Shown piece after piece: positions 10,180 to 60,353 of a stretch of DNA of 64,000 nucleotides; position 1 is the first letter of the stretch, and every line of letters begins with the position of its first letter. Under the pieces are notes generated by a model. The model did not search any database. It saw only the letters and a list, made by a program, of their open reading frames with translations, and was not told the DNA's origin. This stretch comes from Octopus sinensis (Eukaryota): contig NC_042998.1 of the NCBI RefSeq assembly GCF_006345805.1, positions 78,058,001 through 78,122,000 of the forward strand. Reading direction: 5' to 3'. The position numbers and the translations under genes were made by a program.

Positions 10180-11175
10180 TTTGGTGAATTGGCAGAATCG
10201 TTAGCGTATTAGCATTTCTTTACGTTCTGAGTTCAAATCCACCCGAGAACAACTTTACCTTTCGATGTCTATAAAATTAAGTCTAGTACTTGGTCAATGT
10301 AATCAACTTACGCACTTCCCCAAAATTACTAATCTAGTGCCAGAATCGAAACCACGCCGGGATGCTTAGCGGCATTTCGTCCGTCATTACAGTCTAGGTT
10401 CAAATTCTGCCGAGGGTGACTTTGCCTTTCATTTATTTTTCTTTTTGAGAAAATAAGTACCAGTTGAGCACTGGGGTCAATGCAATCGACTTAGACCCTC
10501 CTACGAAGTTGCTGGCCTTGAGCCAAAATTTAAAACTGTAATTATTACTATTACTATTGTAAGGCGGCGAGCTGGCAGAAACGTTAACCTAACAGCATTT
10601 CTTCCGCCTTTACGTTCTGAGTTCAAATTCCACCGAGGTCGGCTCTGCCTTTCATCCTTTCTTGGTCGAAAAAATAACTACCAGTTCAACAGTGAGGTCG
10701 ATGTAATTAACCAGCCCCTTCAACAAAATTTCATGCCATGTGCCTATACAAGGAAAGATTATTATTATTATTATTATTATTATCATTATTATTAAGGCGG
10801 CGAGCTGACAGAAACGTGAGCACGCCGGGTGAAATGCTTAGCGGTATTTCGTCTGTAGTTACGTTCAAATTCCGCCGAGGTCGACTTTGCCTTTCATCCT
10901 TTCGGTGTCGATTAAATAAGTACCAGTTACGCACTGGGGTCAATATAATCGACTTAATCCGTTTGTCTGTCCTTGTTTGTCGACTCAGTGTGTAGCCCCT
11001 TGTGGGTAGTAAAGAAATTGGTATCTCGTCTGCCGCTATGTTTGAGTTTAAATTCTGCCGAGGTCGACTTTGACTTCCATCCCTTCGTGTACAATAAAAT
11101 AAGTAGCACTTAAGCAACAGAGTCGATTAATCCCTCCCCCGAAATCGCTGACCTTGCGCCAAAATTTGAAACCAA
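10180..11175 (+). mobile_element. Head-to-tail cluster of about 5-6 group 2 SINE units (tRNA-like head plus Meta-like core)
   Basis: Repeated ggcgagctggcagaa...gagttcaaat...gactttgcctttcatcctttcggggtcgataaaataagtaccag units. Confidence 0.9.
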
Positions 11176-11903
11176 TAATTTCCATCTGAGGACGGCCACA
11201 GCCGCCGTGATCAAATACGGTTGCATACCATGGGTTTTCGCAGCCCTATTTTCTTGAACATAACTTCGATCACTGCAAACATAACCATATAAAGTAGTCT
11301 TCCAGTGAGTTCTGCTCACTTCGGACACGACACTGTCTGACTACTACGGGTGACATTTATTTTAACCACTATCGGAAGAAGGCAAAGCAACCACTCAGAC
11401 AAAGACTCGAAAACAATGCTTTTTAATCATTCTCTGAAGGGTCACAGTTTAGGACTTTCATATAAATCTTATGAATTTATTTTTTTTATATCATAATTAT
11501 GATTCATAATGATATTCATATTCATAATATATTTCTTATACTGTAATGAAACATGTGTAACATGAAGTTGTAATATACGAAACTTTTCTGTTTTTGTTTT
11601 AATACATACTTAATATGAAACTATGATTCACCAGGACATCAACATATATTTGATTACAGGAATGTATAGACGTGCTTCAAGAGGACACGGCTTGTATTAT
11701 AGCACCTTTTATACATACATGCATGCATGCTCATGCAGCTACCTCCATGAATATGAGAACATCCGTTAATCGTTCGAGAAAATTTGGAAATTCTGAATTA
11801 CACGTCAGTGAAATTGATATGATTATAATTACATTGAACACTTACCTCTCATGTGTTTCAAATAACATATGCGCACACGGATGTGTGTTTATGTATGAGT
11901 GTA

Positions 11904-11954
<51 letters not shown>

Positions 11955-12412
11955 GTACACACTGTGCATGTGTATATAACTGTGTGTTTGTTGAAAAGCT
12001 GCAGTTCTCATTTTCCCCGCCATACATAACGAGATTAATAACTAACAATAGATTAAATTATTAATTTCTTCTGCAGATGTCGCCCTCTAAGGTGATTGCA
12101 CAATCGTCTGTGTAATGATTAGCACTTGAAATACGCTCGTAGAAAATGTGTTAAATTCATGATGTAGTAAGTAAAATTTTGACCGAATATCCTGTTTTAA
12201 TTTGCCCTCGTATACACAGACATATTCACACACATACACGCAGATACACATAACGGAATGTTTCGAAAATCACTTCGTACAGTTAGATCAATTCCATTGC
12301 ATGAGATCCTCGTCTGTCATATTCTAGTATAGCATCAGATTGAAAAGTGCTTTGTGACCAAAATCGACTTGTCCAGCCGGACGCATGAATTGTACCTGCA
12401 ATTCAAAGATTC

Positions 12413-12648
12413 TTTTTTCTTTATTGCCTACAAGGGGCTAAACATAGAGGGGACAAACAAAGTCAGACAAACGGATTAGGTCGATTACATCGACCCCAGT
12501 GCGTAACTGGTACTTAATTTATCGACCCCGAAAGGATGAAAGACAAAGTCTACCCCGGCGGAATTTGAACTCAGAACGTAACGGCAGACGAAATAAGGCT
12601 ACGCATTTCGCCCGACGTGCAAACGTTTCAGCCAGCTCGCCACCTTCA
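12413..12648 (-). mobile_element. Full-length group 2 SINE with Tx1-type tail
   Basis: 16-bp TSD tgcaattcaaagattc at 12397-12412 and 12649-12664. Confidence 0.93.
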
Positions 12649-12744
12649 TGCAATTCAAAGATTCATCCCCAAATCGATCGGGTTTGAAAATTTTATTTAT
12701 ATAGACAGAAATATATAGAAACTACACACATATGTATTTATTTA

Positions 12745-15700
12745 TTTATTCACCACAGGGCGCTAAACAAGTAGACACAAAGGAATTAAGTCAATTACAT
12801 CGACCGCAGTGCGTACTTATTTAATCGACACCGAAAGGCAAAGTCAACCTCGGCGAAATTTTAACTACGGAGGTAAAGACAGACGAAATACCAATTTCTT
12901 TATTATCCACAGGGGGACTAACACAGAAATGGACAAAACTACTGATTGGGACCAGTAATATGATTTTACATAAAATATGTATATAAAAATTATATAAAAT
13001 ATAAAGAAATCGAATGAAATTAACAATACAGAGACAACACAAATGTAGCAATGATCAGTCCACGCTCCGACCCCAGAAGCCCCGATCTATCGCTGGTACC
13101 TTTATTTTGTTCTTCTTTTATAGCCTATTCACACGGTTCCTTGCACGCACAACACTTGTACAACATGCTTCCATCTCTTTTTGAACATACCCTCCGACAG
13201 ACACCTCTTCTCCAGCCACACCTTCCTTTTCAAATGAAAGGTAAAATATAATAGTAAATCGTGTCCGGATATAAAGTTGCCTCTCTTAATCCCTTTTATT
13301 CTAGTCTTCCATACTGCCTCTTTCGCTATTGCTACAACCGTGAGAAAACAATTCTTATTTTCGTTTATTAAAACTTCCGGTGAGTCAATTTTTATAATTG
13401 ACTCAGTTGACAGCGTACTCATCTTTCGTCGGACAACAGGTGTTCAGCACAAACCCACATTTCAAATATCTCCGGACACTGGACAATAGCGTGAGGGACG
13501 GTTTCCCTGTCAACTCACGCATCTTGGACAGGTCGGAGACTGAGGCTTACCATGACTTATCCCAATCGAGCAAGGCACCTCTGTAACATTACCAGGTCAA
13601 GGACTTTTGGAAAGTGTCCAACGCTCTCAACACGAATGTACGATGCAACAGGCTGTCCAGTTGAATTTACCCGAGACCTAGATTCGCCCCCAGGCCATCG
13701 TCACATTCAGACTCTACCAACCCACTATACAAAATTCGTGTAGAACCACAGCTGGCGTTGACCGAGCGCCGGAATAGCAGGAGGACCTTTCGTCACTCTT
13801 TATGCCATTCACTCGACCTCGGTCTACGAAAACACCAGGCTTCCTGTTCGCAAAAACTTTTGAACTCGGGGAACATTTGCCTGGGCAGCAGAGACTACAA
13901 CCGTTCACCATCCAGGAGAATCAAGAGTTGCCTCAACCTCAACACGAGCGTGTGCCTCATTAACCAAGGCATCCCTAAACCTCCCTTTAACGGTTTTTGA
14001 CAACAGACAGAGCGTTACACAAATGGCGACTTGCCAAACCAGTTGCCGAGCTGAAGGCCGACCGACTTTTCCCGGTTAATCTTTGCTCCTGCCACCGTCT
14101 CGTAAACCTCAATAGCCTTACCCAATTCACGTAGGCGTGCTACTGTGGTTACGCTGATAGTGATATCGTCCGCGAAAGCTGTAACGAACTCCTCTAAAAC
14201 TGGTTCTCTCTGGATGCTACTCATCCTTCGCAGTAGGGGCTCAAGAGCCACCGCATACAAAAGTGGTGAGAGCGGACATCCTTGACGAACCGAGCGCCAC
14301 TCCAGAACGGCTTCGAAAGGAAACCGTTCACCCGAACTATCGAGTCAATTTTGTAATACAAAGCAATAAACCACCTGAGGAAGCCAGCACAGTCGCCAGT
14401 TATCGATGGTCAACCGTATGAAAAGCTTTAGACTGGTCCAAATGTACCAATGCTCCACTTTTGACAGATTTATAAACAACCCTGTCAATGGTATAGCGAA
14501 TAAGGTGGAGATAATCCTGAATGGTTCTGCTTGGGATAGCGCATGTCTGTACCTCCCTGACTATAACATTCGCGACACGCGCCAACCTTTTTGCTAAGAC
14601 CTTGACCAAAATCTTCACTTCTGCGTTTAACAGAGTGATGGGCCTGAAGTTATCTAAAACGTCCCCCTTGTCCGGATCCTTTCTGACCAACGTCACTACT
14701 CCCCGGCTCACAGATCTGGATATAAACCCATCTGTTGCCAGTTCGCGTACAGGTCAGCCGGTAGGTGCCCGAACAAGTCTAACATACATTTATATAGCTC
14801 GTACGGAAGACGTACCCACTTTACAGTCGACCATACCCTCCATCACCTCTACAGGCGTGATCGTCCCTTCGCAAGACTCCACATCCGGCCCCGAGAGGTA
14901 CGGTAGCTCGGCAAGAAAGTCCTCGAGGACTCCCCTACAATCAGGGCAGCCATAACCCCCGAACAGCTGGGCGAAGTACTCATGAAAGGCCTCACACATT
15001 TCCTCGGGTTCGTTTACCAAGACACCATTTTGATTCGTCAAAGACCGAATAGTAGAACTATTTCCTTGTCGAGCTTCCACCACTCCGGCCCATCCAGTGA
15101 TCTTGATTCCTTCACTTCTCATCGCATGTAACTTAGCTCTGGCAATACTTCTCAGTCAACTCCAGTCTCTTTACCTTCACTTGGCCCGCATTACCAGTCT
15201 TCCCGGCTTCTATTTCCTTAGCTAGATCATCTCTTATTTTACGTCCCGTCTCAGCTAAACGTATGCTAAACCTAATAGACTCATAATTTTACGGCTCTTT
15301 TTAGGGAGTACCACCATTTATTATTGATGATGGTACCTGTCAATGCCCTCTGAATTAACATCTCGATCCGCTTTCTGTACTCCTCAATCGCCAAAAGGGA
15401 CGTATTGAGTTTCCAGTAGCCAGATCCCTGTCTATGCAACTTATCTACTGTCATCTTACAGGTAACCATCATGTGATCACTGTGGCTGACTAGATAAATC
15501 TGTGGACACTTAGCCACGCACTTATTGGTTTTTCTAATTAAAACCCTATCTATATATATTCTGGAAAACCCGTCACTATTTGACCACGTCCACTGTGGAG
15601 TATTCGGGTGTTACAAACTATTTGGATCTGCCAGCTGAATGTGACTTAGCAGATCCTGTAAGCCTGGGTTATATTGTCTATTCATGTTCGAACCAACACC

Positions 15701-17720
15701 ATCTGTTTGTGCATCACAGATTGTGTAATGTATCCTATCAGTACTAGGGAATGCGACGTGGCCACGAACTTGCCCAGGTCACGAAAATATTCAGTTTGCG
15801 GGCCCATAATGTTGGGTGCATAAATTGCAACCAGCCTGATTATCTTGCCATAAATGAATGTGAGGTCGAGAACGACCAAACTGCCTTCTGGATCAGAAAA
15901 TATCAACTTTTTCTTGGCTACCCGGTTTCTTTTTAGTAGGACCAACACTCCACCCCACCTCCCGCCCGACTTGAAGAAACGTATTTCTAATAGCCGTTCA
16001 GGAGAAGGAGCAGATCTCTTGGCCCCTTCACCCGGGTTTCCGTTGCAACAATCACATCCAATTTTCTTGACCTGATGTCATTTAGGAAGCACCGTTGCTT
16101 CCAGCTAGACATCAGTCCACGAACATTTACACAACCAATGCGAATAGACATTGCTTACATATTTAATCCGGGGTTTCGTGTGGAGAGGGACTCTCCACCT
16201 TTTCTTGACATAGGGTCGGAGGTGCCAAGTCTTGAAAAATGGATTGATAAAAATCCAGTCTCATCATCGACACCGACTTTCTATATGTGTTAAGTAATAA
16301 ATTATGAGTCTTTTTATCCATTTCGTAGAACTCGTAGTTCTTATATTTATCAGAAAGTTCTGCAATCCAAGTGGCTGATTTTATCGCTTTTATTTCTCTT
16401 ATTAAATCTTCACTTTTGCTGTATAACGTGACTATCACTCTATCTTCTACTTCTTTACTTACTATATTTGTTTTCTCTCTTTTCACAATATTTTTTGGTC
16501 TTAGTTCGACCTATTTTTGTTGAATTGAGCTTTCCATTTTTCTCTTGTTGTTAGTTGCTTTCTTTTCTTCTGTTTTTCTCTCTTTCCTCCTTCCTCCTCA
16601 CCATCCTAATCTTCCTCGCTGTCTCAACAGTGTTTTTTTTATATGGCCAAGCTGGCCACACTGGACACATCGGGGTTTACGCCCCTCAACGAATACGTTA
16701 AGGAATTCATCCCCCATTTCTATTTTCTCCTGTAAGTGTTCTAAAATTGACTGTTCTGCTTGTATTAGGAGGTGAACCGTTTGTCCGGTCCAATAAGCCT
16801 TTTCTGTGATTGTAGCCTGAAGGAGAGTTATATTATCTTCCTTTTTTGCCAGGACTGCCACCATGAACCACATAGAGTCGACTTGAGTTGGGACCCTTGG
16901 TATACGTATCTTTGACGTCCTCATTCCCACATATATGGCAATTAAAACAACGTCCTCCGTTTCTAAAGATTTAACTGAGTGCATTTGTGCAGTTTCTATA
17001 TCTTTTAGTCGTACTTCGATAGTACCAAACATCTTCCCTCTGACTCGGTATGTGATATCGTGCCAGATGGGTTTCAAGCACTTCTCAGCTTTCTCTTCGC
17101 TCAATTTTTTCCCGTTTAGACAGTAAGATTTTTAAATAATTGGTTTTTTTTCTTTCTTCTAACATTAATAGTTCTTCCGGGGGTTGAACTTTCACAACAC
17201 CGTCTTCAATTGTTATCATATTTTTGTACTTTATCAGGTCATTTTTGTTTGTCGACAGCTGGCGGGTTCCACCTCCAACCGCCGACGCAAAACTTTTTTG
17301 TTTTATTTTCTTCTTTTTGAAGGCCTTTCGCGTCAATATTCCTCTTTACAACAGTACACATTGATGGTTCGGGAAATTCACTTTCAGAAGAATCCGAAAT
17401 ATCGCCAAATATTAAACTTTCAATCCTTTTTGCCTCCCTGTCGGTTGACGATTCTTCGCCTGACGAAGTTGCACTTTTCGGCATCTTGCCAGCAATTAAT
17501 GATTCCCCCACAGGGGAAAACACACGATAGTTTTCGAATGAAGACTATCACACAAATAATTATAACAGGAACAATAATTATAACAAGAAATAGCAAAAAA
17601 ACAGTCAATAGAAACTTGCACTTACTATACAGATGCACTCCAATAATAATTACCAATAAATCCAAACTCACACAGACGAAATACCACTATGCTAACGTTT
17701 GTGCCAGCTAGTCGCCTTAC
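12745..17720 (-). mobile_element. Group 2 SINE split by a LINE insertion (halves 12745-12892 and 17672-17720)
   Basis: The SINE sequence resumes after the LINE with duplicated acagacgaaatacc. Confidence 0.88.
12893..17671 (-). mobile_element. Full-length decayed Tx1/L1-clade LINE (ORF1 zinc knuckle; ORF2 APE endonuclease plus RT)
   Basis: ORF1 fragment with CVQCGQLGH; ORF2 start IGCVNVRGL, SHSDH..GYWKLNTSLL, NFRPITLLNAEVKI, LDQSKAF, AFADDIT; 14-bp TSD at 12879-12892 and 17672-17685. Confidence 0.93.
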
Positions 17721-18857: not shown

Positions 18858-18907
<50 letters not shown>

Positions 18908-19790
18908 CAATGGCTAATGGCCTCTGGCTTAAAATCTGAAACAGAAGGGTTTATCATAGCAGCTCAAGATCAATGCCTACCAACAAGAAACTACTAGGCC
19001 AAAATATTAAAGAACAGCAGTAGCCCAACATGTCGTGTATGCCGACAACAAAATGAAACCATTGATCATGTTGTCTCCAAATGCAGTCTTCTAGCGCCTA
19101 CAGAGTACCTCAACAGGCATGATAGAGCTGCACAATATATTCACTGGGTAATTTGCAAAAACCTGGATTTGCCCCATGAAAAAAACTGGTGGGAACACAA
19201 TCCACCTCCAGTGCTTGAAAATGACCACATCTCACTCCTCTGGAACTTCACCATTCAAACTGACAGAAAGATAGATGAAAATAGGCCAGACATCATATTG
19301 AAAGACTTCAGACAAAGAACATGCCTCCTCATTGATATGACTGTCCCAATCGATATAAACGTATCTGTCAAGACCTACCAAAAACTGAGCAAATATAAAG
19401 ATCTTGAAATAGAAATCAGCAAAATGTGGAACCTGAAGACTAAAACAATACCTGTTGTCATAGGTGCCCTGGGAATGATAGCGAAAGGGACTGATTGCTA
19501 CCTAACTCAGATACCAGGAAACCCCAAAATGGCAGAAATTCAAAAGATAGTGCTCATGGGAACTGCTCATATCCTACGCAAAATACTCTCTATGTAATCC
19601 CAAGGTTTAAAACAAACTTTTTTTTTTAATTTATGTATTAGATATTCACTAGTACAACACCAAAAAAAACAAACAAATATATGGCACACTAGGCATAACA
19701 ACAACGTGAACTTCCAACCTGTTGTCTCTTGAGGTCTCTGAGTGAGACTTGGAGCCAACTTGTACAGACATAAAGCAAAAGTCAAACATA
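18908..19790 (+). mobile_element. 5'-truncated R4/Dong-like LINE (family B) in (TAA)n
   Basis: GLKSETEGFIIAAQDQ, zinc-finger-like CRVC..ETIDH, REL endonuclease NRPDI...KLSKYKDL (ORF 19169-19597); (AAT)n flanks. Confidence 0.92.
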
Positions 19791-20000
19791 GAATAATAAT
19801 AATAATGATAATAATAATGATTATTATTAAGTAACAGTCATGTACACAACTTGGACGGACACATACCAGTACAGGGACATACGTTCACATACACATACAC
19901 ATGTATACATTCCCACAGACGCGTCTGCCCATTCTCCTAGACACTCACATACATATGTAGCACACGAGTACAAACATACATATATACCTACGTTTGAGCA

Positions 20001-20056: not shown

Positions 20057-20515
20057 AAGGCAGCGAGCTGGCAGAATCGTTGGCACGCTGGATGAGATGC
20101 TTAGCAGTATTTCGCCCGTCCTTACATTCTGAGTTCAAATTCTGCCGAAAATGACTTTGCCTTTCATCCTTTCGGGGTCGATAAATTAGGTACCAATCAA
20201 GTACTGGGCTCAATGCGATCGATTCTGATTTCAAATTCCACCGAGGTTGACTTGGCCTTTCATCCTTTCGAGATCGATAAATTAAGTACCAGTTGAGTAC
20301 TAGGGTCGTTCTAATCGACTGCCCCTTCCCCCAAAATTTCGGACCTTGTGCCTCGAGCAGAAAAAATTATTATTAATTTTCAATTGCCGCCGAGGTCGAC
20401 TTTGCCTCACTTGCTGTCGGAGTCGGTAAAATAAGTACCAGTTGAGCACTGGGGTCGATTTAATCGATTGATATCTTCCTCCGAAATTGCTTGCCATGTA
20501 TCAAAATTTGAAACT
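20057..20515 (+). mobile_element. Cluster of about three group 2 SINE units
   Basis: Repeated Meta-like core gactttgcctttcatcctttcggggtcgataaa. Confidence 0.85.
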
Positions 20516-20560
20516 ATTATTATTATTAATATTATAATTATTATTATTATTATTATTATT

Positions 20561-21115: not shown

Positions 21116-21212
21116 TGTTAGTGTATACACGGAGTTGTTCAACACCCCACTTGTCCCTTGTATTGTATCGTCCCTATTTGTTTTTGCGCTCGACCCTTGT
21201 GGCCAATAAAGA

Positions 21213-21215
<3 letters not shown>
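21116..21215 (+). mobile_element. Short Tx1-type 3' tail fragment
   Basis: ttgtccc...cccttgtggccaataaagaaa resembles the LINE 3' end at 12893-12945. Confidence 0.55.
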
Positions 21216-24077: not shown

Positions 24078-24310
24078 TATTTCATTACTACCCACAAGGG
24101 GCTAAACACAGAGAGGACAAACAAGGACAGACAAACGGATTAAGTCGATTATATCGACCCCAGTGCGTAACTGGTACTTATTTAATCGACCCCGAAAGGA
24201 TGAAAGGCAAAGTCGACCTCGGCGGAATTTGAACTCAGAACGCTACGGCAGACGAAATACCACTAAGCATTTCGCCCGGCGTGCTAACGATTCTGCCAGC
24301 TCGCCGCCTT
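24078..24310 (-). mobile_element. Full-length group 2 SINE with Tx1-type tail
   Basis: 16-bp TSD ctataacataggtgcc at 24062-24077 and 24311-24326. Confidence 0.95.
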
Positions 24311-32039: not shown

Positions 32040-33220
32040 CCTAAATCAGAAGTTGGAAGGGCTTTGAGGCCCATATGGAATGAAATAAAATGCCTCACTA
32101 GAGGAAGGAAATTTGCAATAATGGAGGTGTGGTTTGCGTCAGAGTTTGTGGCTAGGTAGCATCTCGTAATTCCCCTCAAGACGGAAGGGGTGATCCTTCT
32201 ACCTGGGAAGACCTGCTTCTAGGGTAAGGGTAGAAGAGATCTCTCTTGAGGTAGATGTCGCCTGGCTGCTAGCTGCCATCCTTTTGGGATTGGAGGACAA
32301 AATTGTGGTCCTCCTGGCCAAGAGAGTGTCTACAAATAATTGGCAAGGGCAGGGCCTGATAATGGCAACCCAGGCCGCCTCAAAGATTTAGAAAGGATGG
32401 TAGAAATCATCACAGTCGGTGAAGACGTAATGTTGAGAGTCATTGTGGAGGGCAGGACGCCCCGTTGCTTTAAATGTTGCGAATAAGGACACATTAAAGC
32501 AGAATTCCCTCCACCCAACGCAAGGGCTCCAAATGAGAAAACCGTACCTCCACCACAAGCGACGTGATGTGTGCGCGGGGAAGTACCAGAGAAGGGAGAA
32601 CAAAGGCAAGAAGAATAGAGTACACAAGCCCAAAAGAGGAAAAAATTAAAAAGAACTGAGGGAAAAAATGTGAACCACCACCCTAGTCCCAACCGACTCC
32701 TATCGGACCCCATGCTTTCCCACCCTCCCACTGTAGTCACCAACCCTCACCCTGCCCCCTCGTGACACAGACAATTGCACACACATCCAGGTACCCTAAA
32801 TCCCCTAAGCCTCCCTAAAAATTGGATTACGCGACAGCGTACAATAAAACGAGCAAAAATCTGAGAACAACTAAAACAGGAAATAAACTCACATGTGAAC
32901 CCCGGGTGCATCCTGGTGAGTGATAAGCAGAACTGCCTAATCAAAAAATACGGAACTGAAATTTTGGATCTAAGAATGGAAACAGAGATAATCCAATTAA
33001 GTAAGTTTCCACCAAAGGTGGACTTTAAAGATTTATATATGAATTGTTTAAAAGGGCCTTAATGAAGTCGTTCAAATGTAGAGTCGAGTGGCTTTCATTC
33101 CATTTCATTGTTCTTTTTCATCTTGTCCATTCGTTTACCTTTTTTTGTCCCCACTTTTGTTTGTCTGTCTTTATATTATCCACTCTATGTTTAGCCTCTT
33201 GTTGGCATTAAGAGAAATCA
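32040..33220 (+). mobile_element. Tx1-related ORF1-only element nested in the PLE
   Basis: MEVWFASE..LKTEGVILLP..VEGRTPRCFKC..GHIK is colinear with ORF 16598-17104; followed by a Tx1-type tail tgtttagcctcttgttggcattaagagaaat. Confidence 0.75.
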
Positions 33221-35192: not shown

Positions 35193-35681
35193 TCAACGAG
35201 GAGTTTGCATATTAAGTTGTGTTTGGAATTTTTCAATAAAGAGATTCTCCTTGTTAATTCTCTCCTGTGTGGTGATCCCGTCTTTACATTGGTAGAAGGG
35301 GAATATATAGAATTTGGGGTTTAAGTCTTTAGCACATGAGTCTAAGTGGTCACTCAGTGGAATTTGTCGGTATTCCGGGAGATTTATTTGTTCTTTATGC
35401 ACCGTTACTCGTTTACGTAACGGGAGACTCGTTTGTCCAACATAATTATGTTGGCAACCAGCGCATGTGAGAACGTAGATAAGGTTCTCGGAGGAACAGG
35501 AGAAGTTAGTCTTGATTTTAAACTTCGTACCTTGTTTGAAGGTAAATTCAGAGCCTTCAAGTAGAAAGGGGCAGGTACCACAGTTTGAGCGTGCACATTT
35601 TTTTACTGTTGGGGGTGGATGTGGTGTGTGAAGTTTGGCATTTGTCAAGAGGTTTTTAAAGATTTGTGTTGCCTTTTGCAT
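35193..35681 (-). CDS. PLE GIY-YIG endonuclease domain (frameshifted from the RT)
   Basis: KKCARSNCGTCP, NLIYVLTCAGC..YVGQT..LRKRVTVH, KENLFI, LN motifs. Confidence 0.9.
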   Translation of the reverse strand: MQKATQIFKNLLTNAKLHTPHPPPTVKKCARSNCGTCPFLLEGSEFTFKQGTKFKIKTNFSCSSENLIYVLTCAGCQHNYVGQTSLPLRKRVTVHKEQINLPEYRQIPLSDHLDSCAKDLNPKFYIFPFYQCKDGITTQERINKENLFIEKFQTQLNMQTPR

Positions 35682-35712
35682 TTGAGGATTTTGTGTGTAT
35701 TTATAATGTTTT

Positions 35713-37368
35713 TCATTTTGGGTCTGTTGACAGTAGACTGAGGTTTTGTATGATTGTGGTGTATGCTTCGATATTTTTGGGGTTGTGGGTGGAAATGTAT
35801 GGAAGTATTTTGAGGTTGTGTGTGGTGTTAGGTTGGGTGGTTTTCAGTGTAGTGTTGTCTAGTTCTTTGGCGCGTTTTATTCCATACTCTATAAGGGTGG
35901 AGGGATATTGACGTTGTAATAGTATTTTTTTGAGGTCTTGAAGGCGTATTTCTCGTGTTTTTGGATCCGAGACAATGGTGCATACCCTTTTAGCTAAATT
36001 GAAAGGGATATTTGTCTTGGTGTGTTTTGGGTGGCATGAACTAAAGAGGAGGTATTGTTGTGAGTCTGTAGGTTTGTGGTAGATGTCTGTTATGATTTGG
36101 TTCTTAGGTGTTTTTATAATTATGAGATCAAGGAATGGGAGATGATGTTTGCTTAATTCCATAGTGAATTGGATGTTGGGATGTATGTTGTTTAGTATGG
36201 TTTTGAATTCCAGGAGTTTTTCATAAGGTTCTTTCCATATGATGAAACAATCATCTAAATACCTTTTCCAGTTTTCCATTAGGTAGGTGTGGAAAACATG
36301 TCCAAATTTCTGGCTTGATATTTCATAGAGTGACAGTTCGAAGTAACCCATTATGAGGTTCGCAAGGACTGGTGCAGCCTTGGTACCCATCGCAATGCCA
36401 CATTTTTGACGGTAGTGTGTGTCGTCGAAGAGAAAAAAATTGTTTGTCAGAATGAACTTAAGAGATTCTGTAATAAAAGACTTGTTAATGCGGTTAGGGA
36501 ATGTCTCTGGGTGTTTTTCTAGCCAGAAGTCAATTGCCTCTATACCATACTCATGTGGAATGTTGGTGTAGAGGTTGATGACATCAAAGGATACCAGGAG
36601 TGCCTCCTCGTTAACTGTTTTCGGGAGGTGTTTGAGCATGTCCAGATCATCCCTAATGAAACTTTTGATGTGGGTAAGGAAAGGTTTCAAAAGGATGTCT
36701 AGGAAGTTACTCAGGCGGTGTGTTTCACAGGAGGTACCAGCCACGATGGGCCTTAGTTTTAGGTCCTCCGGTGCTTTGATGTTGATGTGGATGTCAGTGG
36801 AGAGTTTGCAGGCTTCGGTGATGTATTTGTTTTTATGGATTTTAGGAAGGCCATAAAAAAGGCTGGGCTTGCATTTGAAAATGGTGATATAATCCCTTTC
36901 TTTTTCTCTGAGTCCCTGACCGTGTTGGCGTATGAGTGTGGTGAGGTTTCTGATTGTTTTTTGCTGTTTGTAGTTGTTAATAACCTCATAGAAAATGTTA
37001 TTGTTAAGCATGGAGAACACTAGGTGTTTATAAAATTCCGTGTCCATAAGGACCACAGCACTCCCTTTGTCCGCTTCTTTGATGGTGAGGTTTTTATCCA
37101 GTTGTATGTCACGTAGGTTTTCCCATTCTTCCTTACTGAAATTGGATTTTACCTTGGTTTTGCTTGGGGTAAAGGGGAGACTCTGGATGTGTTTACAGAA
37201 ATCGTCCAGTGTTTTATTTCTCCCTTTTGGTGGTAGGAAGTTGCTTTTATTTCTGATCAATGAGTCGTCCCCATTGTTGATATCTGTCAAAGCTTCTGTT
37301 AGGCGAAGTTTTCTGCAGAATTCAGAAACGTCATCCTTGGGTGTTCTTGGGGTGGGTGTGAATTTCAA
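35713..37368 (-). CDS. PLE reverse transcriptase (the frame stays open upstream to about 37524)
   Basis: ADKG, FYGLPKIHK, LRPIV, FDVINLYTNIP, GIAMGT, RYLDD, LPFLDL. Confidence 0.95.
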   Translation of the reverse strand: MKFTPTPRTPKDDVSEFCRKLRLTEALTDINNGDDSLIRNKSNFLPPKGRNKTLDDFCKHIQSLPFTPSKTKVKSNFSKEEWENLRDIQLDKNLTIKEADKGSAVVLMDTEFYKHLVFSMLNNNIFYEVINNYKQQKTIRNLTTLIRQHGQGLREKERDYITIFKCKPSLFYGLPKIHKNKYITEACKLSTDIHINIKAPEDLKLRPIVAGTSCETHRLSNFLDILLKPFLTHIKSFIRDDLDMLKHLPKTVNEEALLVSFDVINLYTNIPHEYGIEAIDFWLEKHPETFPNRINKSFITESLKFILTNNFFLFDDTHYRQKCGIAMGTKAAPVLANLIMGYFELSLYEISSQKFGHVFHTYLMENWKRYLDDCFIIWKEPYEKLLEFKTILNNIHPNIQFTMELSKHHLPFLDLIIIKTPKNQIITDIYHKPTDSQQYLLFSSCHPKHTKTNIPFNLAKRVCTIVSDPKTREIRLQDLKKILLQRQYPSTLIEYGIKRAKELDNTTLKTTQPNTTHNLKILPYISTHNPKNIEAYTTIIQNLSLLSTDPK

Positions 37369-37783
37369 ACCTCTTGCTAGGATGTTGATTTGGGTTGGTG
37401 TCAGTGTTTTGCTGGAGAGGTTTATAATTTTTGTTTTATTATTTTGGGTCTGTGTTAGCGGTGGTGTTTGTATTTTTCCCCTCTGTCTAAAAAATGGTTG
37501 TTGAGGTAAGGGGTGTATTCTTTGTTAAAGTTCTGGTTGTATGTGTGGGAGTGTTTTTGGGTGGGGAGGTTGGAGGGGGGTAGGTAGTTGTCGTATTTGT
37601 GTTGGTATGGGATGCGATGGTGTAAGGATTTGTGAGAAATGCGATGGGTTTGTGGGTGTGTGTCTGGTAGATTGTATGGGGGGATGTAGGGGGGTATGTA
37701 GTTGTGGTGATTGGGTTCGTGTGGGATGTGAGGGTTTGGAGATCTGTAGGAGATGTGGTAGGAATGTGGTTGTTGGATGGGTG

Positions 37784-38771: not shown

Positions 38772-38817
<46 letters not shown>

Positions 38818-38820
<3 letters not shown>

Positions 38821-41373
38821 TAGTTTTATTTTTATAGCGTGCTTTCACTTCAGTACCGAGCGCAGCTCTGTGTTCCTTAGGTATGTGCTGTGATTTGTTG
38901 TGATGCTCTGATGGTTATTGTATGGAAAGTGTTCTGCGTAGGATGTGTGCAGCGCCTAGTAGTGCAATTTTATGTATGTTATATGTGTTTGCAAGTCCTG
39001 GTGTTTTTGTCTGAATATTTTTTTATCATGCCTAATGCGCCTACTATGATAGGAATTGCTTCTGTTTTTAGATTCCACATTCTGGTTACCTCTATTTCCA
39101 GGTCTTTGTATTTTGAGAGTTTCTCCATTTCTTTTAGAGACACGTAGTCATCTGCCGGTATTGATACATCAATTAGAAAGCATTTTTTTCTTCATGATCT
39201 CTGACAACTATATCTGGCCTGTAGAACTTAATTTCTCTATTTGTGTGTATCGGCACATCCCAGAGTATGGTTGCTTTCTCGTTTTCTGTGACCTTTTCTG
39301 GTGTGTGCCTATACCATCTTTTTTCTGTTGTTATTCCATAATGTTGGCATAGCTTCCAATGTATGTAGGTTCCAACTATGTCATGTCTGTGAATATATTC
39401 CTTCTTAGCCAGGACTGGGCACCTAGAGATAATATGATTTATTGTTTCTTGTCCATCTCCACATATTCTGCAGTTACTTGTTATATTTTTTTTCATTACA
39501 TGTTTTTGGTAATTTCTGGTGGGGAGGCTTTGGTCTTGTGCTGCAATTAAAAATCCCACTGTCTCTGCTTTGAGTCCTGAGCTTCTCAACCATTCCTGGG
39601 ATTTTTTTTGTCTATTTCTTTTGCGTTTAGTTTAGTCCAGTATTTACCATGAAAGGGCTTTTCTTGCCATCGTTTTATCATGGTTCGTTGCTGTTCTATT
39701 TTTAGTTTGGATTTCATTTGTTTTATAGCTTTTGTTGTTTCTTCAACTTCTTCTTCTTCTTTATATTTATTAGGTGGTATGATTTCTTGTTTGCATTTGT
39801 CAGCTTCCTTAAATACTGAGAACAGTTTTTTGTTTTGCTCGTGTTTTGCCGCTATTTGTATCAGTTTTCCTTCCTTCTGAAGTAGATATTTTTGAAGTCT
39901 TATGGTGGTTATTTTATAGTAGTTTTCCATCTGTATAAGGCCTCTACCACCTTCTATACGTTGTATATATAGTCTTTCTATGTCAGATTTTGGGTGATGC
40001 ATCCTAGATCCTGTCATTATTTTTCTTGTTTTCCTATCTATTTTGGTCTGTTCATTTATTGTCCAGTTAAGGATATTGTAGCTGTAACTTATAACTGGGA
40101 CAGCTAAAGTGTTAATACCTATTATCTTGTTTTAGCATTGAGCTCTGTTTTTAGTATTGATCTAACTCGTCTATAATATTCTTTTTTTATTTTCTCTTTC
40201 ATTTGTGTGTGTTGTGTCTTATCTAGTTCATGGATTCCTAAGTATTTGTAAGTTTGGCTTTGGTTTAATTCTTTTATTTCATTGGTTTTATCTAGTGTGA
40301 TGTTGCTACTCTTAACTAGTTTTCCTCTTTTCATGGTTACTTTGGCGCACTTTTCTAATCCAAATTTCATATCTGTCTTTAATAGTGTTTCCAGCTGTTT
40401 GTCATTTGCAGCGTATAGTTTTAGGTCATCCATATATAAAAGTTGGCTGATCGTTTTGTCGTAACATTTATATCCGCATCCAGTTCTATTTAGCATATCA
40501 GATAGAGGTGACAGTGCCAAACAGAAAAGGAGTGGAGAGAGCGTGTCTCCCTGGAATATTCCTCTTCTAATGGGGATGTCTTTGGTTTTCATGAGTCCCT
40601 CTTTTGTTTGGAGCTGTAGCACTGTTTGCCATTTATTCATAGAGTGCCCTATGAATTTTATAATTGTTGGTGCTACTTTGTTAATGGCTAGTGTTTCGAG
40701 GATCCATGTGTGGGGGATGCTATCAAACGCCTTTTTGTAGTCGATCCAGGCCATACTGAGGCCTTTCTTCTTTCTGTGGCTGTCTTCAGTTATGGCTTTA
40801 TTAATCATTAGTTGATCTTTACAGCCATATGAGCCTTTGCGGCATCCTTTCTGCTCTTCTGGGAACAGGTTGTTTTCGTCCAGGTGCTTGTTCAACCATT
40901 GCGATATCACTGCAATAAATGCCTTGTACATTGTAGGGAGACAGGTTATTGGTCTGTAGTTTCTAGTTTTACTGTCTCATTTGATTTGGGAATTAAGATG
41001 GTTTTCCCCTTCGTGAGCCATTCAGGCATTGTCTCTGGCTCTGCTAGTATGTTGTTAAAGTTTTCAGCTAGCTTTTTGTGCATTCCTATTAGATATTTTA
41101 ACCAGAAGTTGGGGATCTTGTCATGCCCAGGTGCCTTCCAGTTGCTTAGTCTTTGCAGTGCCTGGGTGACCTCTTCAGTTGTAATGGGGGTCCAAAGTTG
41201 CTCAGATGCTGAGTTTGTTGTTTTAATACTCCGTTTTTGGTTGCTCGTTCGCCGACCATATTTCTCTCCAGAATTCTTCCACTTCTTCTGCCGTTGGTTC
41301 TGCAGTGATTTCTATTTTATATTTGCCAAGTTCTTGGTAGAACTTTTGGGGGTTGGAGTTGAACTTTTTGTTT
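38818..41373 (-). mobile_element. 5'-truncated R4/Dong-like LINE (family A), RT plus REL endonuclease
   Basis: ORF 40122-40931 WIDYKKAFDSIPH, GIFQGDTLSPLLF, LLYMDD; CRIC..ETINHIISRC; RPDI; (ATT)n flanks. Confidence 0.95.
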
Positions 41374-55165: not shown

Positions 55166-55198
55166 ATATATGTCAGTATATATATATATATATATATA

Positions 55199-55426
55199 TT
55201 TCTTTACTACCCACAAGGGGCTAAACACAGAGGACAAACAAGGACAGACAAATGGATTAAGTCGATTATATCGACCCCAGTGTGTAACTGGTACTTATTT
55301 AATCGACCCAGAAAGGATGAAAGGCAAAGTCGACCTCGGCGGAATTTGAACTCAGAGCGTAACGGCGGACGAAATACGGCTACGCATTTCGCCCGGCATG
55401 CTAACGATTCTGCCAGCTCGCCGCCA
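55199..55426 (-). mobile_element. Full-length group 2 SINE with Tx1-type tail in (TA)n
   Basis: Highly similar to 24078-24310. Confidence 0.93.
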
Positions 55427-59075: not shown

Positions 59076-60353
59076 TATGGGGCGTTCAATAAGTAATGCC
59101 TCTGACCCACTTGCAATTGTTTGATCTAGCTGAAAATTTACATGTGCAATTATTTATATCTGTATAGATTAAGTGGCAAATTACAGCTCTGAACTAATTG
59201 TGGTTTCTGATATACAGGTGTTGGAACTGAGTCAAGTGTGAAATGGAGCCTGTTGAGTGTCGAGCAGTGATCTGGTTTTTTATTTGAAAGGACGCACACC
59301 ACGGGAGACTTTTGATGAAATGAAAGTAACTTATGGTGATGATGCCCCATCATATGACCTTGCAAAACGCTGGCATCATGAATTCAAACATGGTTGGAAC
59401 TCTGTGGAAACAGCTCTCAGATCTGGTCGCCCCCCTTCTGCCATTGATGAGGCATCTGTCCGTCATGTTGAGGCTGCCATTTTGGAAGAACGACGCATAA
59501 CTATTCGCCAAATAGCCAATGAGGTCAAGTTTAGTACCGGGTCTGTGGAAACTATCATTCATGACCATTTGCATATGCAAAAGGTGTCTGCCAGATGGAT
59601 TCCCAGGTTGCTCACACCTTTCCAGAAGCAAGAACGCGTCGAGTGCTCGAGGATGAATTTGGAGATGTGCCAAGAAGATGAGTCAAAATTTTTCAAAAGA
59701 CTGATTACACAGGATGAAACATGGGTCCATCACTATGATCCAGAGACCAAAGCCCAGTCAATGCAGTGGAAGCACCGTGACTCACCTCCTCCAAAGAAGG
59801 CATGGGTGCAGCCCTCCGCTGGCAAGGTCATGCTCACAGTCTTCTGGGACCAGGACGGACTAGTGATGACAGATTTCCTGGCAAAGGGTACCACAATTAC
59901 AGGAGCCTATTATGCTTCACTTTTGAGGAAATTAAGAGAAGCTATCAAAATCAAGAGGCGGAGCAAGATCAGCAAATGCATCCTCCTCCTGCAGGACAAC
60001 GCTCCGGTCTACAACTCGCGTGTCGCCAGATCAGAAGCACAGGCGTGCGGCTATTAACTCCTCCCCCATCCCCCTAACCTCCTGACCTTGCACCCTCTGA
60101 TTTTCACCTCTTCCCAGCCTTGAAGTTGTTTTTGAAAGGAAAGCATTTCCAAGATGATGCAGCCTTGATTTCTGAAGTCACATCGTGGTTGGAGGACCAA
60201 GCTGGGGTCTTCTACAAAAACGGTCTCCAGATTTGCATCAAACGATGGGAGAAATGTGTAACTCTGATTGGTTCCTTTGTAGAAAAAGACCAAGTTTCGT
60301 TGCTCTACTGCAATGGGAAGTGGGTCAGGGGCATTACTTATTGAACGCCCCTC

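Follow-up and report, generated by a model that had tools for sequence, protein, structure and literature searches.

Target-specific LINEs normally rely on targets that they do not make themselves, namely rRNA, snRNA, microsatellites, and DNA transposons. As described by Kojima in 2015, the Tx1-Mar LINEs and SINEU of crocodilians have a common preferred site in an interspersed repeat, the DNA transposon Mariner-N4_AMi (PMC4494074). Different Tx1-Mar LINE families use two sites in this one target, tandem SINEU insertions sandwich a duplication, SINEU specificity ranges from 13% to 90%, and trans-mobilization was inferred from the common target. The same paper describes Tx1L of Xenopus laevis, which is inserted in the non-autonomous piggyBac DNA transposon Tx1D, as well as Keno, which targets U2 snRNA, and Kibi and Koshi, which target microsatellites (PMC4494074). 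Octopus genomes are SINE-rich and their L1-Tx1 families have been recently active (PMC13282606), and the accessible parts of two octopus repeat papers, of which this is one, make no mention of targeting or nesting. We found no description of a LINE that targets its own partner SINE, or of arrays of the type reported below, in a search that covered sources other than subscription journals and Repbase Reports, where a prior description is possible.

Results and discussion

A decayed LINE inside a SINE

The window analyzed here is a stretch of 64,000 nt from Octopus sinensis. Translations revealed a 4.8-kb LINE on its minus strand (12893..17672, running from 17672 to 12893), with remnants of ORF1 (about 17400-16200) and of an APE-RT-zf ORF2 (about 16160-13145), numerous stops and frameshifts, and one deletion of about 290 bp. 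Its identity to the old copy L069 was 86-87%; across ORF2 and the 3' UTR, it was 85% identical to the young subfamily. In the intact natural copy L280, ORF2 contained Exo_endo_phos (23-230), RVT_1 (514-755), and zf-RVT (974-1026) domains, corresponding to the N-terminal APE endonuclease, RT, and C-terminal zinc-binding region of the L1 group. A separate ORF1 with a zinc knuckle, also typical of that group, was found as a 520-aa frame with zf-CCHC at 319-335. The top solved-structure match of the LINE was human LINE-1 ORF2 (E 2e-64), with R2 far weaker, and its nearest named protein relative came from an argonaut octopod (53%). Named matches also included 'transposon TX1 uncharacterized 149 kDa protein' of alligator and coral, names that were assigned automatically. 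The lineage formed a single clade (support 100/99) in an RT tree that was built without curated Tx1 or L1 references, had weak deep forks, and did not separate Tx1 from L1.

A short conserved 3' tail without poly(A), common to a partner SINE, is a mark of the Tx1 clade. The LINE tail is not poly(A) but ends AATAAAGAAATT, with about 44 nt in common with the SINE at 80-86%, and a hairpin of the GCCC-N5-GGGY type folded in 11/11 tails tested. We assign the window element, in decayed form, to a Tx1/L1-type APE-RT LINE lineage.

The tail of the window LINE terminates directly on its target, and the element is bracketed by ACAGACGAAATACC, which occurs without mismatch on either side, at 12879-12892 and at 17672-17685. 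The LINE start TGTGAG, which is present in other old copies regardless of the next base of the host, already takes up base 17672 with its first T, and the real target duplication is therefore probably 13 bp. It reads GGTATTTCGTCTG (SINE bases 50-62) on the minus strand, with the 3' copy at 12880..12892 and the 5' copy at 17673..17685. This length falls within the duplications of about 10-20 bp of the L1 group, and in young LINE copies the host-derived core of the duplication was 7 to about 13 bases. Both flanks are SINE on the minus strand: an internally deleted head with an A-box-like motif lies upstream of the LINE (17686..17718), and the body with a decayed Tx1-type tail lies downstream (12744..12892), with a B-box-like motif at 12855-12868. 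The nesting of the LINE in a SINE with a target duplication, as proposed in the initial annotation, was therefore confirmed. The remaining ORFs of the window (Penelope-like, R4/Dong-like, and mariner) showed no relation to the LINE/SINE system.

SINE copies in the window

Base numbers of the SINE follow the solo minus-strand copy at 24078..24310, our natural reference, whose 16-bp outer duplication starts GGCAC (degenerate GGTA class). By eye, the SINE head has an A-box-like TGGCAGAA at base 13 and a B-box-like GAGTTCAAATTCC at base 75; it gave no matches in Rfam, and ARAGORN found no genes in the window. Ohshima and Okada reportedly described the tRNA-derived octopus SINEs OK, OR1, and OR2 in 1994, and the present SINE presumably resembles them in its A- and B-box-like head motifs and exchangeable tails. 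Two other solo Tx1-tailed SINEs lie on the minus strand, one with a C-variant-like head and an outer duplication starting GAATC (AGAA class; 12415..12645) and one with a C-variant head within (TA)n (55197..55425). On the plus strand, an older family of this radiation, now decayed, has left a tail (33159..33219) that is the best match of the SINE tail (59 nt, 85%) and a candidate donor of it.

A dimer occupies the plus strand further upstream. Its left unit is a full-length Tx1-tailed SINE (10794..11019), and its right unit consists of a SINE body from base 50 with a tail of the TTTGAAACC type (11020..11179). The right unit is more diverged (79% identity to the 24079 copy vs 90% for the left unit) and is likely the older host. 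The LINE-like junction at 11019|11020 is indeed present, with one mismatch. However, 10843-10855, previously taken as an independent duplication of the site, is the left SINE's own base-50 site, and such a 'duplication' is expected in any SINE monomer.

Site fidelity of the LINE

The LINE occupies a fixed site in a multicopy sequence, as target-specific Tx1 elements do: each of the 99 distinct copies whose 3' end was intact and readable (38 old and 61 young) adjoined base 50 of the SINE head. The old copies were collected using LINE-only 3' DNA; all 38 intact tails were at base 50 and 2/40 copies had no tail. Among the 37 old copies outside the window, 17 matched the site exactly and none had more than four mismatches. 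Young copies were at base 50 in 29/29, 30/30, and 40/40 cases in three overlapping sets, which hold the 61 distinct copies once coordinate overlaps are removed. A search with the exact old-tail pattern gave six matches and zero additional LINE copies. In 464,000 bases of random DNA we counted 76 base-50 sites, or 8.2e-5 for each strand position, so that an insertion would land on one by chance with a probability of about 8e-5, compared with 38/38 old LINE ends; chance was rejected as the cause of the shared junction. The suggested preference of the LINE for a site in the SINE head thus holds, and its specificity is essentially absolute. The copies near 12413, 24078, and 55199, earlier cited for their other targets, are all SINEs, and only the SINE is relaxed. 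The SINE that receives the LINE is the dominant short repeat of the O. sinensis genome.

Many families in the genome carry the tail of this radiation, with its hairpin common to all. A second LINE lineage preferred base 17 of the same SINE head, and control families with related tails inserted at (TTA)n (17/17) and (TATC)n (11/13, ends being in view for these 11). None of 74 sister-family ends (0/20, 0/14, and 0/40) was at base 50, nor was any base-50 insertion seen among 28 microsatellite-family ends. Families that are close relatives and have open reading frames thus differ in target, which is (TTA)n, (TATC)n, or base 17 or base 50 of the SINE.

Independence of the insertions

The LINE insertions at base 50 are independent of one another, as indicated by the divergence gap between LINE and host, the agreement of the first target base, and the hosts' own outer duplications. 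Pairwise distances in 35 copies were 0.0095 for the LINE vs 0.103 for the flanking SINE, which corresponds to differences of 1% between young LINEs and of 10% between the SINEs that host them. At the first target base, either G or C, the two sides of the LINE were concordant in 37/37 copies, with at most one disagreement between sides at each of target positions 1-7, and a clade of near-identical young LINEs occupied both host variants (15 C, 12 G). Outer duplications of the host SINEs (13-22 bp) were retained in 19/31 testable cases, and the hosts had at least five tail types. Young copies were mostly full-length with ORF1 and ORF2 open.

These data bear on the alternative that the LINE is a composite with SINE pieces at both ends that inserts anywhere. 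It would account for target positions 14-17 at the 5' junction, which track the LINE and disagree between sides in 7-28 of 37 copies, for distances that are weakly correlated between LINE and host (rho 0.13), and for the old 5'-incomplete copies, which retained the downstream SINE but in 27/28 cases lacked a sense SINE head at the break. However, a composite would not be expected to have flanks with ten times the divergence of the LINE, full G/C agreement with both variants in one near-identical clade, or tails that differ among hosts. Since nearly every young copy has its full length, the breaks in the old copies are best read as later deletions. Among the truncated old copies listed, no duplication flanked the LINE plus downstream SINE, and 3' transduction of LINE and SINE body to random sites was rejected as well. 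The composite is already contradicted and must be regarded as extremely improbable. The LINE is also covered by contigs whose runs carry the labels of three other organisms. One contig extends into the SINE head by 31 bases and others by 29, 16, and, on the 3' side, 13 bases, an extension that is a weak hint.

SINE-SINE junctions and 184-bp arrays

Genome-wide, the exact base-50 junction followed 21,278 of 108,753 exact SINE tails, and the units so joined make up dimers and 184-bp arrays. In a random sample of 464 kb, 12/39 SINE ends were at this junction (vs 8.2e-5 per position; binomial p about 4e-40) and 24/39 were outside SINEs, so that the enrichment proposed as a check in the initial annotation is evident. 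Readable duplications of solo SINEs started with GGTA, GGAA, or GGCA in 7/23 cases (p about 4e-10). With at least a fifth of exact SINE tails at base-50 junctions, this is a large structural feature of a SINE-rich genome, and repeat annotators would divide the dimers and arrays into hundreds of 'families'.

We consider it probable that endonuclease targeting of base 50, together with SINE copying via the tail hairpin, built the arrays. The LINE endonuclease likely nicks the bottom strand of the SINE head between bases 49 and 50, with reverse transcription primed at this nick; the top strand would break 7-17 bases downstream. The 5' end of the LINE may be joined by annealing of its short target-like sequence, a step suggested by target positions 14-17, which match the LINE and not the host. 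The LINE proteins likely copy SINE RNA too, through the common tail hairpin, which at base 50 would place SINEs in register within SINEs. A LINE insertion parts the A- and B-box-like motifs by 5.3 kb; an in-register SINE insertion would leave a whole head-body unit and regenerate the site.

Amplification of a single composite dimer subfamily was rejected as the sole cause of the junctions. The right-hand partners had at least five tail types, and in 17 dimers whose right unit had a different type of tail, this unit was the more diverged (0.083 vs 0.052, p = 0.019), these partners being mutually 16% apart and not a clade. A composite subfamily may nevertheless contribute in part. Recent local tandem duplication was rejected as the main source of the arrays, since only 8/92 adjacent pairs were within 2.4%; adjacent units differed by 7.9%. 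Same-type pairs showed no significant difference between left and right divergence (p = 0.12-0.17), and their units were closer than random pairs (0.079 vs 0.101; diagnostic differences 2.9 vs 4.2); local duplication or multimer copying therefore does contribute. The tail variant at junctions was GGGTAG/GGGTAA in 113/119 cases, and the LINE's own variant, GGGCAA, occurred in 1/119 junctions vs 36/115 solo SINEs, so that the sequence after a SINE tail depends on the tail variant.

The latter two observations would also fit a site-specific LINE with most SINE-SINE junctions copied from RNA rather than newly targeted. Array transcripts would read through the tail into GGUAUUU, which would pair with a nicked SINE or with a GGTA site produced by any sister-family endonuclease and give a G junction, or whole multimers would be retrotransposed. 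This route is also favored by the reference SINE, in which four consecutive T that would stop polymerase III are absent. However, the age and diversity of the right partners with other tails speak against RNA copying, as does the presence of a LINE with exactly this putative cut site.

Head variants and LINE subfamilies

C heads made up 44% of exact SINE heads, whereas only 227 of 21,505 exact SINE-SINE junctions started with C (G = 99%). The old LINE subfamily, window copy included, likewise used C hosts in 0/38 cases, whereas the young subfamily favored them (28/40); a complete block of the LINE by the C variant is thus ruled out for young copies. As the junctions are nearly all G, the young subfamily is not the maker of most arrays. 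SINEs with C junctions gave no signal of being young (nearest-neighbor distances 0.048-0.054, the same as others).

Copying from RNA would account for the near-absence of C junctions and for the C heads that often precede G junctions (7/34; 3/7 in the random sample), for which simple duplication of the host site is an inadequate explanation. On the other hand, C junctions mostly followed C heads (12 C, 5 G), matching host duplication, and a LINE sub-lineage with a common 5' variant (L278, L289, and L292) occupied both C and G hosts, which makes the LINE independent of first-base RNA pairing. On balance, we regard RNA copying as the source of most junctions as rather unlikely.

Array-internal sites held 1/37 young LINEs and 5/12 5'-complete old copies. 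The initial annotation had the SINE multiplying landing sites for its LINE; this stands for dispersed new heads, from which new sites mainly derive, and not for arrays, given the single array-internal young copy. Together with the related families at (TTA)n, (TATC)n, and SINE base 17, the old G-only and young C-favoring subfamilies at one site offer a clean natural series for changes in APE endonuclease specificity.

Mobilization of the SINE

Since LINEs and SINE copies occupy the same SINE base, the SINE likely both borrows the LINE machinery and supplies landing sites. Because the SINE tail fits an older sister family best, mobilization in trans by the base-50 LINE is something we infer, from the common hairpin, the common site, and the G-only pattern that the SINE has in common with the old subfamily. 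The tail affinity and the junction tail variant, which is unlike that of the LINE, point the other way. They raise the alternative that another family, unsampled or extinct and with a looser GGTA preference, mobilized the SINE, the base-50 LINE being a later parasite. The SINE tail aligns better to the older decayed family than to the base-50 LINE, SINEs accept short GGTA-like targets outside SINEs (LINE copies 0/99), and numerous families with this tail exist in the genome. However, none of the sister- and microsatellite-family ends seen was at base 50, and it is the old base-50 subfamily that matches the G-only pattern and in part lies inside arrays. A mobilizer of this kind is unlikely, slightly more so than RNA copying.

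Beyond targeting of base 50 with hairpin-mediated SINE copying, we tentatively speculate that LINE and SINE form a closed loop in which an arms race takes place, a scenario about as doubtful as RNA copying. LINE lineages would split the SINE promoter region, with base 17 in the A box and base 50 between the boxes, and the SINE mobilized by them would make their landing pads and build its own arrays. The head variant GCGTAGC|C would have evaded the old base-50 endonuclease and risen to its present frequency, and the youngest LINE subfamily would then have evolved cutting of the C head.

Comparison with known systems

Tx1 elements that target other mobile elements are already published, and the octopus twist is that the target is a SINE with the tail of the LINE radiation. 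As far as the source describes them (PMC4494074), Tx1-Mar and SINEU are similar in that LINE and SINE prefer one site, LINE families use two sites per target, and the SINE is relaxed. In contrast to their third-element target, the octopus target is the Tx1-tailed SINE itself, so that passenger and landing pad are one family, with >21,000 junctions and single-base LINE fidelity. Tx1L in Tx1D is, from the same account, also an APE-type LINE whose insertion site in another mobile element is fixed, but Tx1D is a DNA transposon and does not depend on the LINE. Keno, Kibi, and Koshi, as described there, share the specificity for multicopy targets, and the octopus sister families at (TTA)n and (TATC)n resemble them; however, their targets are host genes or simple repeats, whereas the octopus target is a retroposon that the LINE can presumably amplify. 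With such a target, which carries the tail of the LINE radiation, a LINE lineage would be able to produce safe harbors for itself.

Copies of the LINE and SINE in the window

Two copies of GGTATTTCGTCTG flank a 4.78-kb LINE on the minus strand of the window (17672 to 12893), which has a SINE head on its upstream side and a SINE body downstream. The window also holds a SINE dimer at 10794-11179: the tail of a full-length SINE is joined directly to base 50 of another SINE, which is more diverged and has a different tail. SINE bases were numbered on the natural copy at 24079-24310, and the shared insertion site falls between bases 49 and 50 of the SINE head. Both insertions were present as the initial annotation had described them. 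The site copy at 10843-10855, which it had taken as a duplication, has no evidential value, being the left SINE's own internal site. Translation showed that the reading frames of the window LINE are interrupted by many stops and frameshifts.

Several other repeats were seen in the window. SINE bodies with differing tails cluster beside (TAT)n at 20058-20520 and 21150-21215, together with one more Tx1-type tail running into (TAT)n. A Penelope-like element with RT and GIY-YIG domains and long open frames lies at 35193-37524 (minus strand), fragments of RT and zf-RVT, which end in (TAA)n and look R4/Dong-like on visual inspection, lie at 38800-40976 (minus strand) and 18900-19800 (plus strand), and a fragment of a Mariner-type transposase lies at 59257-60057 (plus strand).

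Identity and site fidelity of the LINE

A protein search of the octopus's own genome recovered a young subfamily with open frames, whose copies are ~99% identical. One natural young copy of 5,354 bp encodes an ORF1 of 520 aa with a zinc knuckle and an ORF2 of 1,134 aa with APE endonuclease, RT, and zf-RVT domains; among solved structures, human LINE-1 ORF2 is the best match. Named protein relatives include an argonaut protein (53%) and proteins that carry the automatic name 'TX1 149 kDa'. The LINE belongs to the L1 group and likely to the Tx1 clade; a tree did not settle the latter.

Targeting by this LINE is real, strong, and genome-wide. Old copies were searched with the last 357 LINE bases only, and 40 of the 448 candidates were scored. 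All 38 with an intact tail adjoined the site, one (L079) next to a SINE remnant of only ~20 bases; the other two had lost the tail. Each of the 12 old copies that retain a 5' end also had the site upstream, following a head in seven and an earlier SINE tail in five. The exact young tail occurs 115 times in the genome, and the young copies read in three sets (29/29, 30/30, and 40/40; 61 distinct by coordinate) all adjoined the site. Old and young copies combined, 99/99 LINE 3' ends were at the site, whereas a 464-kb sample of random DNA gave a background of 8.2e-5 sites per strand position; this bears out the preference first proposed from the window. Control families with a similar tail had (TTA)n ends (17/17) or (TATC)n ends (at least 11/13), and ends of sister families fell at base 50 in 0/20, 0/14, and 0/40 cases.

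Among related elements, young families that share the tail hairpin and have an open ORF2 (loci L176-L205) end in (TTA)n or (TATC)n, and some (TTA)n copies are directly followed by the 5' end of another LINE. In sister families at 72% protein identity (L336-L355), what comes behind the copy is often one of several recurring LINE-like 5' sequences (GGCATGG..., ACATGGAGG..., GAAATTCGG...), which suggests LINE-into-LINE trains.

Independence of the insertions and their junctions

A composite element in which the LINE carries the SINE was considered and ruled out. In 35 near-full young copies, divergence was 0.95% in the LINE versus 10.3% in the flanking SINE. The SINE has two linked head variants, GCTTAGC/G and GCGTAGC/C (slash, insertion site), and the first target base was identical on both LINE sides in 37/37 copies, with both variants (15 C, 12 G) found within one near-identical LINE clade. 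The host SINE or array retained its own outer duplication in 19/31 testable cases, and host SINEs carried at least five tail types. Together these observations indicate that the SINE was present before the LINE.

When the two sides of the duplication were compared (n = 37), positions 1-7 were nearly always equal, positions 8-13 differed in 3-5 copies, and positions 14-17 in 7-28; the distal bases partly track LINE sub-lineages. We infer that the LINE 5' end carries a short stretch resembling the target, by which it anneals there when the 5' side is joined; this agrees with the near absence of truncation in young copies (38/40 reach the 5' end). The 5' end was missing in 28/39 old copies, 27 of which had no sense head at the break. 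These losses are best read as later deletions: young copies are complete, and deletions inside the element occur often.

SINE insertions at base 50 and elsewhere

The junction of SINE tail and site was enriched as anticipated: 21,278 of 108,753 exact SINE-type tails were followed by the exact G site, often within arrays of 184-bp period. Among 39 randomly sampled SINE ends, 12 were at base 50, two at base 17, one antisense, and 24 outside SINEs. Right-hand partners at the junctions belonged to many types, and partners carrying the TAGAGTAG tail were 16% apart mutually and more diverged than their left neighbours (17 pairs, p = 0.019). Adjacent units of the same type differed by 7.9% versus 10.1% in random pairs, left and right not being significantly different. 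For solo SINEs outside SINEs, duplications started in three classes, GGTA-like (7/23 readable), AGAA, and (A)TATA. These mixed targets, together with the use of bases 50 and 17, show that the SINE is a relaxed user of several specificities. Behind a few SINE tails (L126, L162) stood a SINE in antisense, entered at a single recurrent position (opposite strand, GGTAC..), possibly a third hotspot of the GGTA class.

The second hotspot is accounted for by a sister lineage in head-to-tail ~1.75-kb units (L370-L409, L300, L305, L347; G000 C5:48428170-48438722 and others), whose preferred target is AGAAACGTTAGC at SINE base 17. With one end chosen per locus or array, base 17 followed in 7/14 copies of one tail subtype, and an AGA- or AAA-starting sequence followed the others. 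Young base-50 LINEs contain these arrays or have them immediately upstream.

Variant use and mobilisation of the SINE

Exact G and C heads number 21,461 and 16,784, and only 227/21,505 SINE junctions start with C. The LINE used the C site in 0/38 old and 28/40 young copies. Two readings fit: the old endonuclease may have rejected C, which the young one accepts, or read-through of the SINE RNA may template G at the junction. Heads before C junctions were mostly C (12 C, 5 G), and C heads preceded G junctions in 7/34 cases. The endonuclease hairpin loop affects specificity in L1-type endonucleases; in this region (ORF2 ~residue 200) the young subfamily (intact copy L280) has GST and old copies (L069, L077, L085) have GSS.

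A small hairpin was common to all 11 tails folded. The SINE tail aligned best with an older decayed family, also in the window at 33159, and junction SINE tails read GGGTAG/GGGTAA in 113/119 cases, the LINE tail reading GGGCAA. No lineage other than the base-50 one was found to have this cut site, and the G-only pattern of the SINE recurs in the old subfamily of that lineage, so the base-50 lineage likely mobilises the SINE in trans. Thus, of the proposal that the LINE targets a site in the SINE that it mobilises, the targeting stands, and the mobilisation is a likely reading of these sequence patterns. The further idea that the SINE supplies landing sites for the LINE is weakened for arrays, because the young LINE avoids array-internal sites (1/37 overall; 1/12 G insertions versus about half expected, p = 0.003).

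Proposed mechanism

The LINE endonuclease would initiate sequence-specific target-primed reverse transcription at base 49/50, a specificity that is very probably intrinsic to the element. The base-50 lineage would also bring SINE RNA to the same site, where homology to the host head would align it in register for joining; we consider this second step reasonably probable, with less confidence than the first. Some arrays may have been lengthened by multimer copying or local duplication. As the site lies between A- and B-box-like motifs of the SINE, a LINE at base 50 would presumably disable the host's internal promoter, and an in-register SINE would not. Polymerase III transcription of the LINE is presumably unlikely, given a T4 run at base 98 and 25 such runs in the LINE.

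Comparison with known systems

Our literature search, which covered open-access papers, found no LINE targeting its own tailed SINE family. Kojima 2015 (PMC4494074) describes Tx1-Mar LINEs and SINEU with common sites in a Mariner element, along with tandem SINEs, and also names Tx1L in Tx1D, Keno, Kibi, and Koshi; a safe-harbour rationale is given in PMC4640811. The octopus phenomenon is a variant of this already known Tx1-type targeting. Whereas the target of Tx1-Mar and SINEU, as described there, is a Mariner element, the target in octopus is the tailed SINE family itself.
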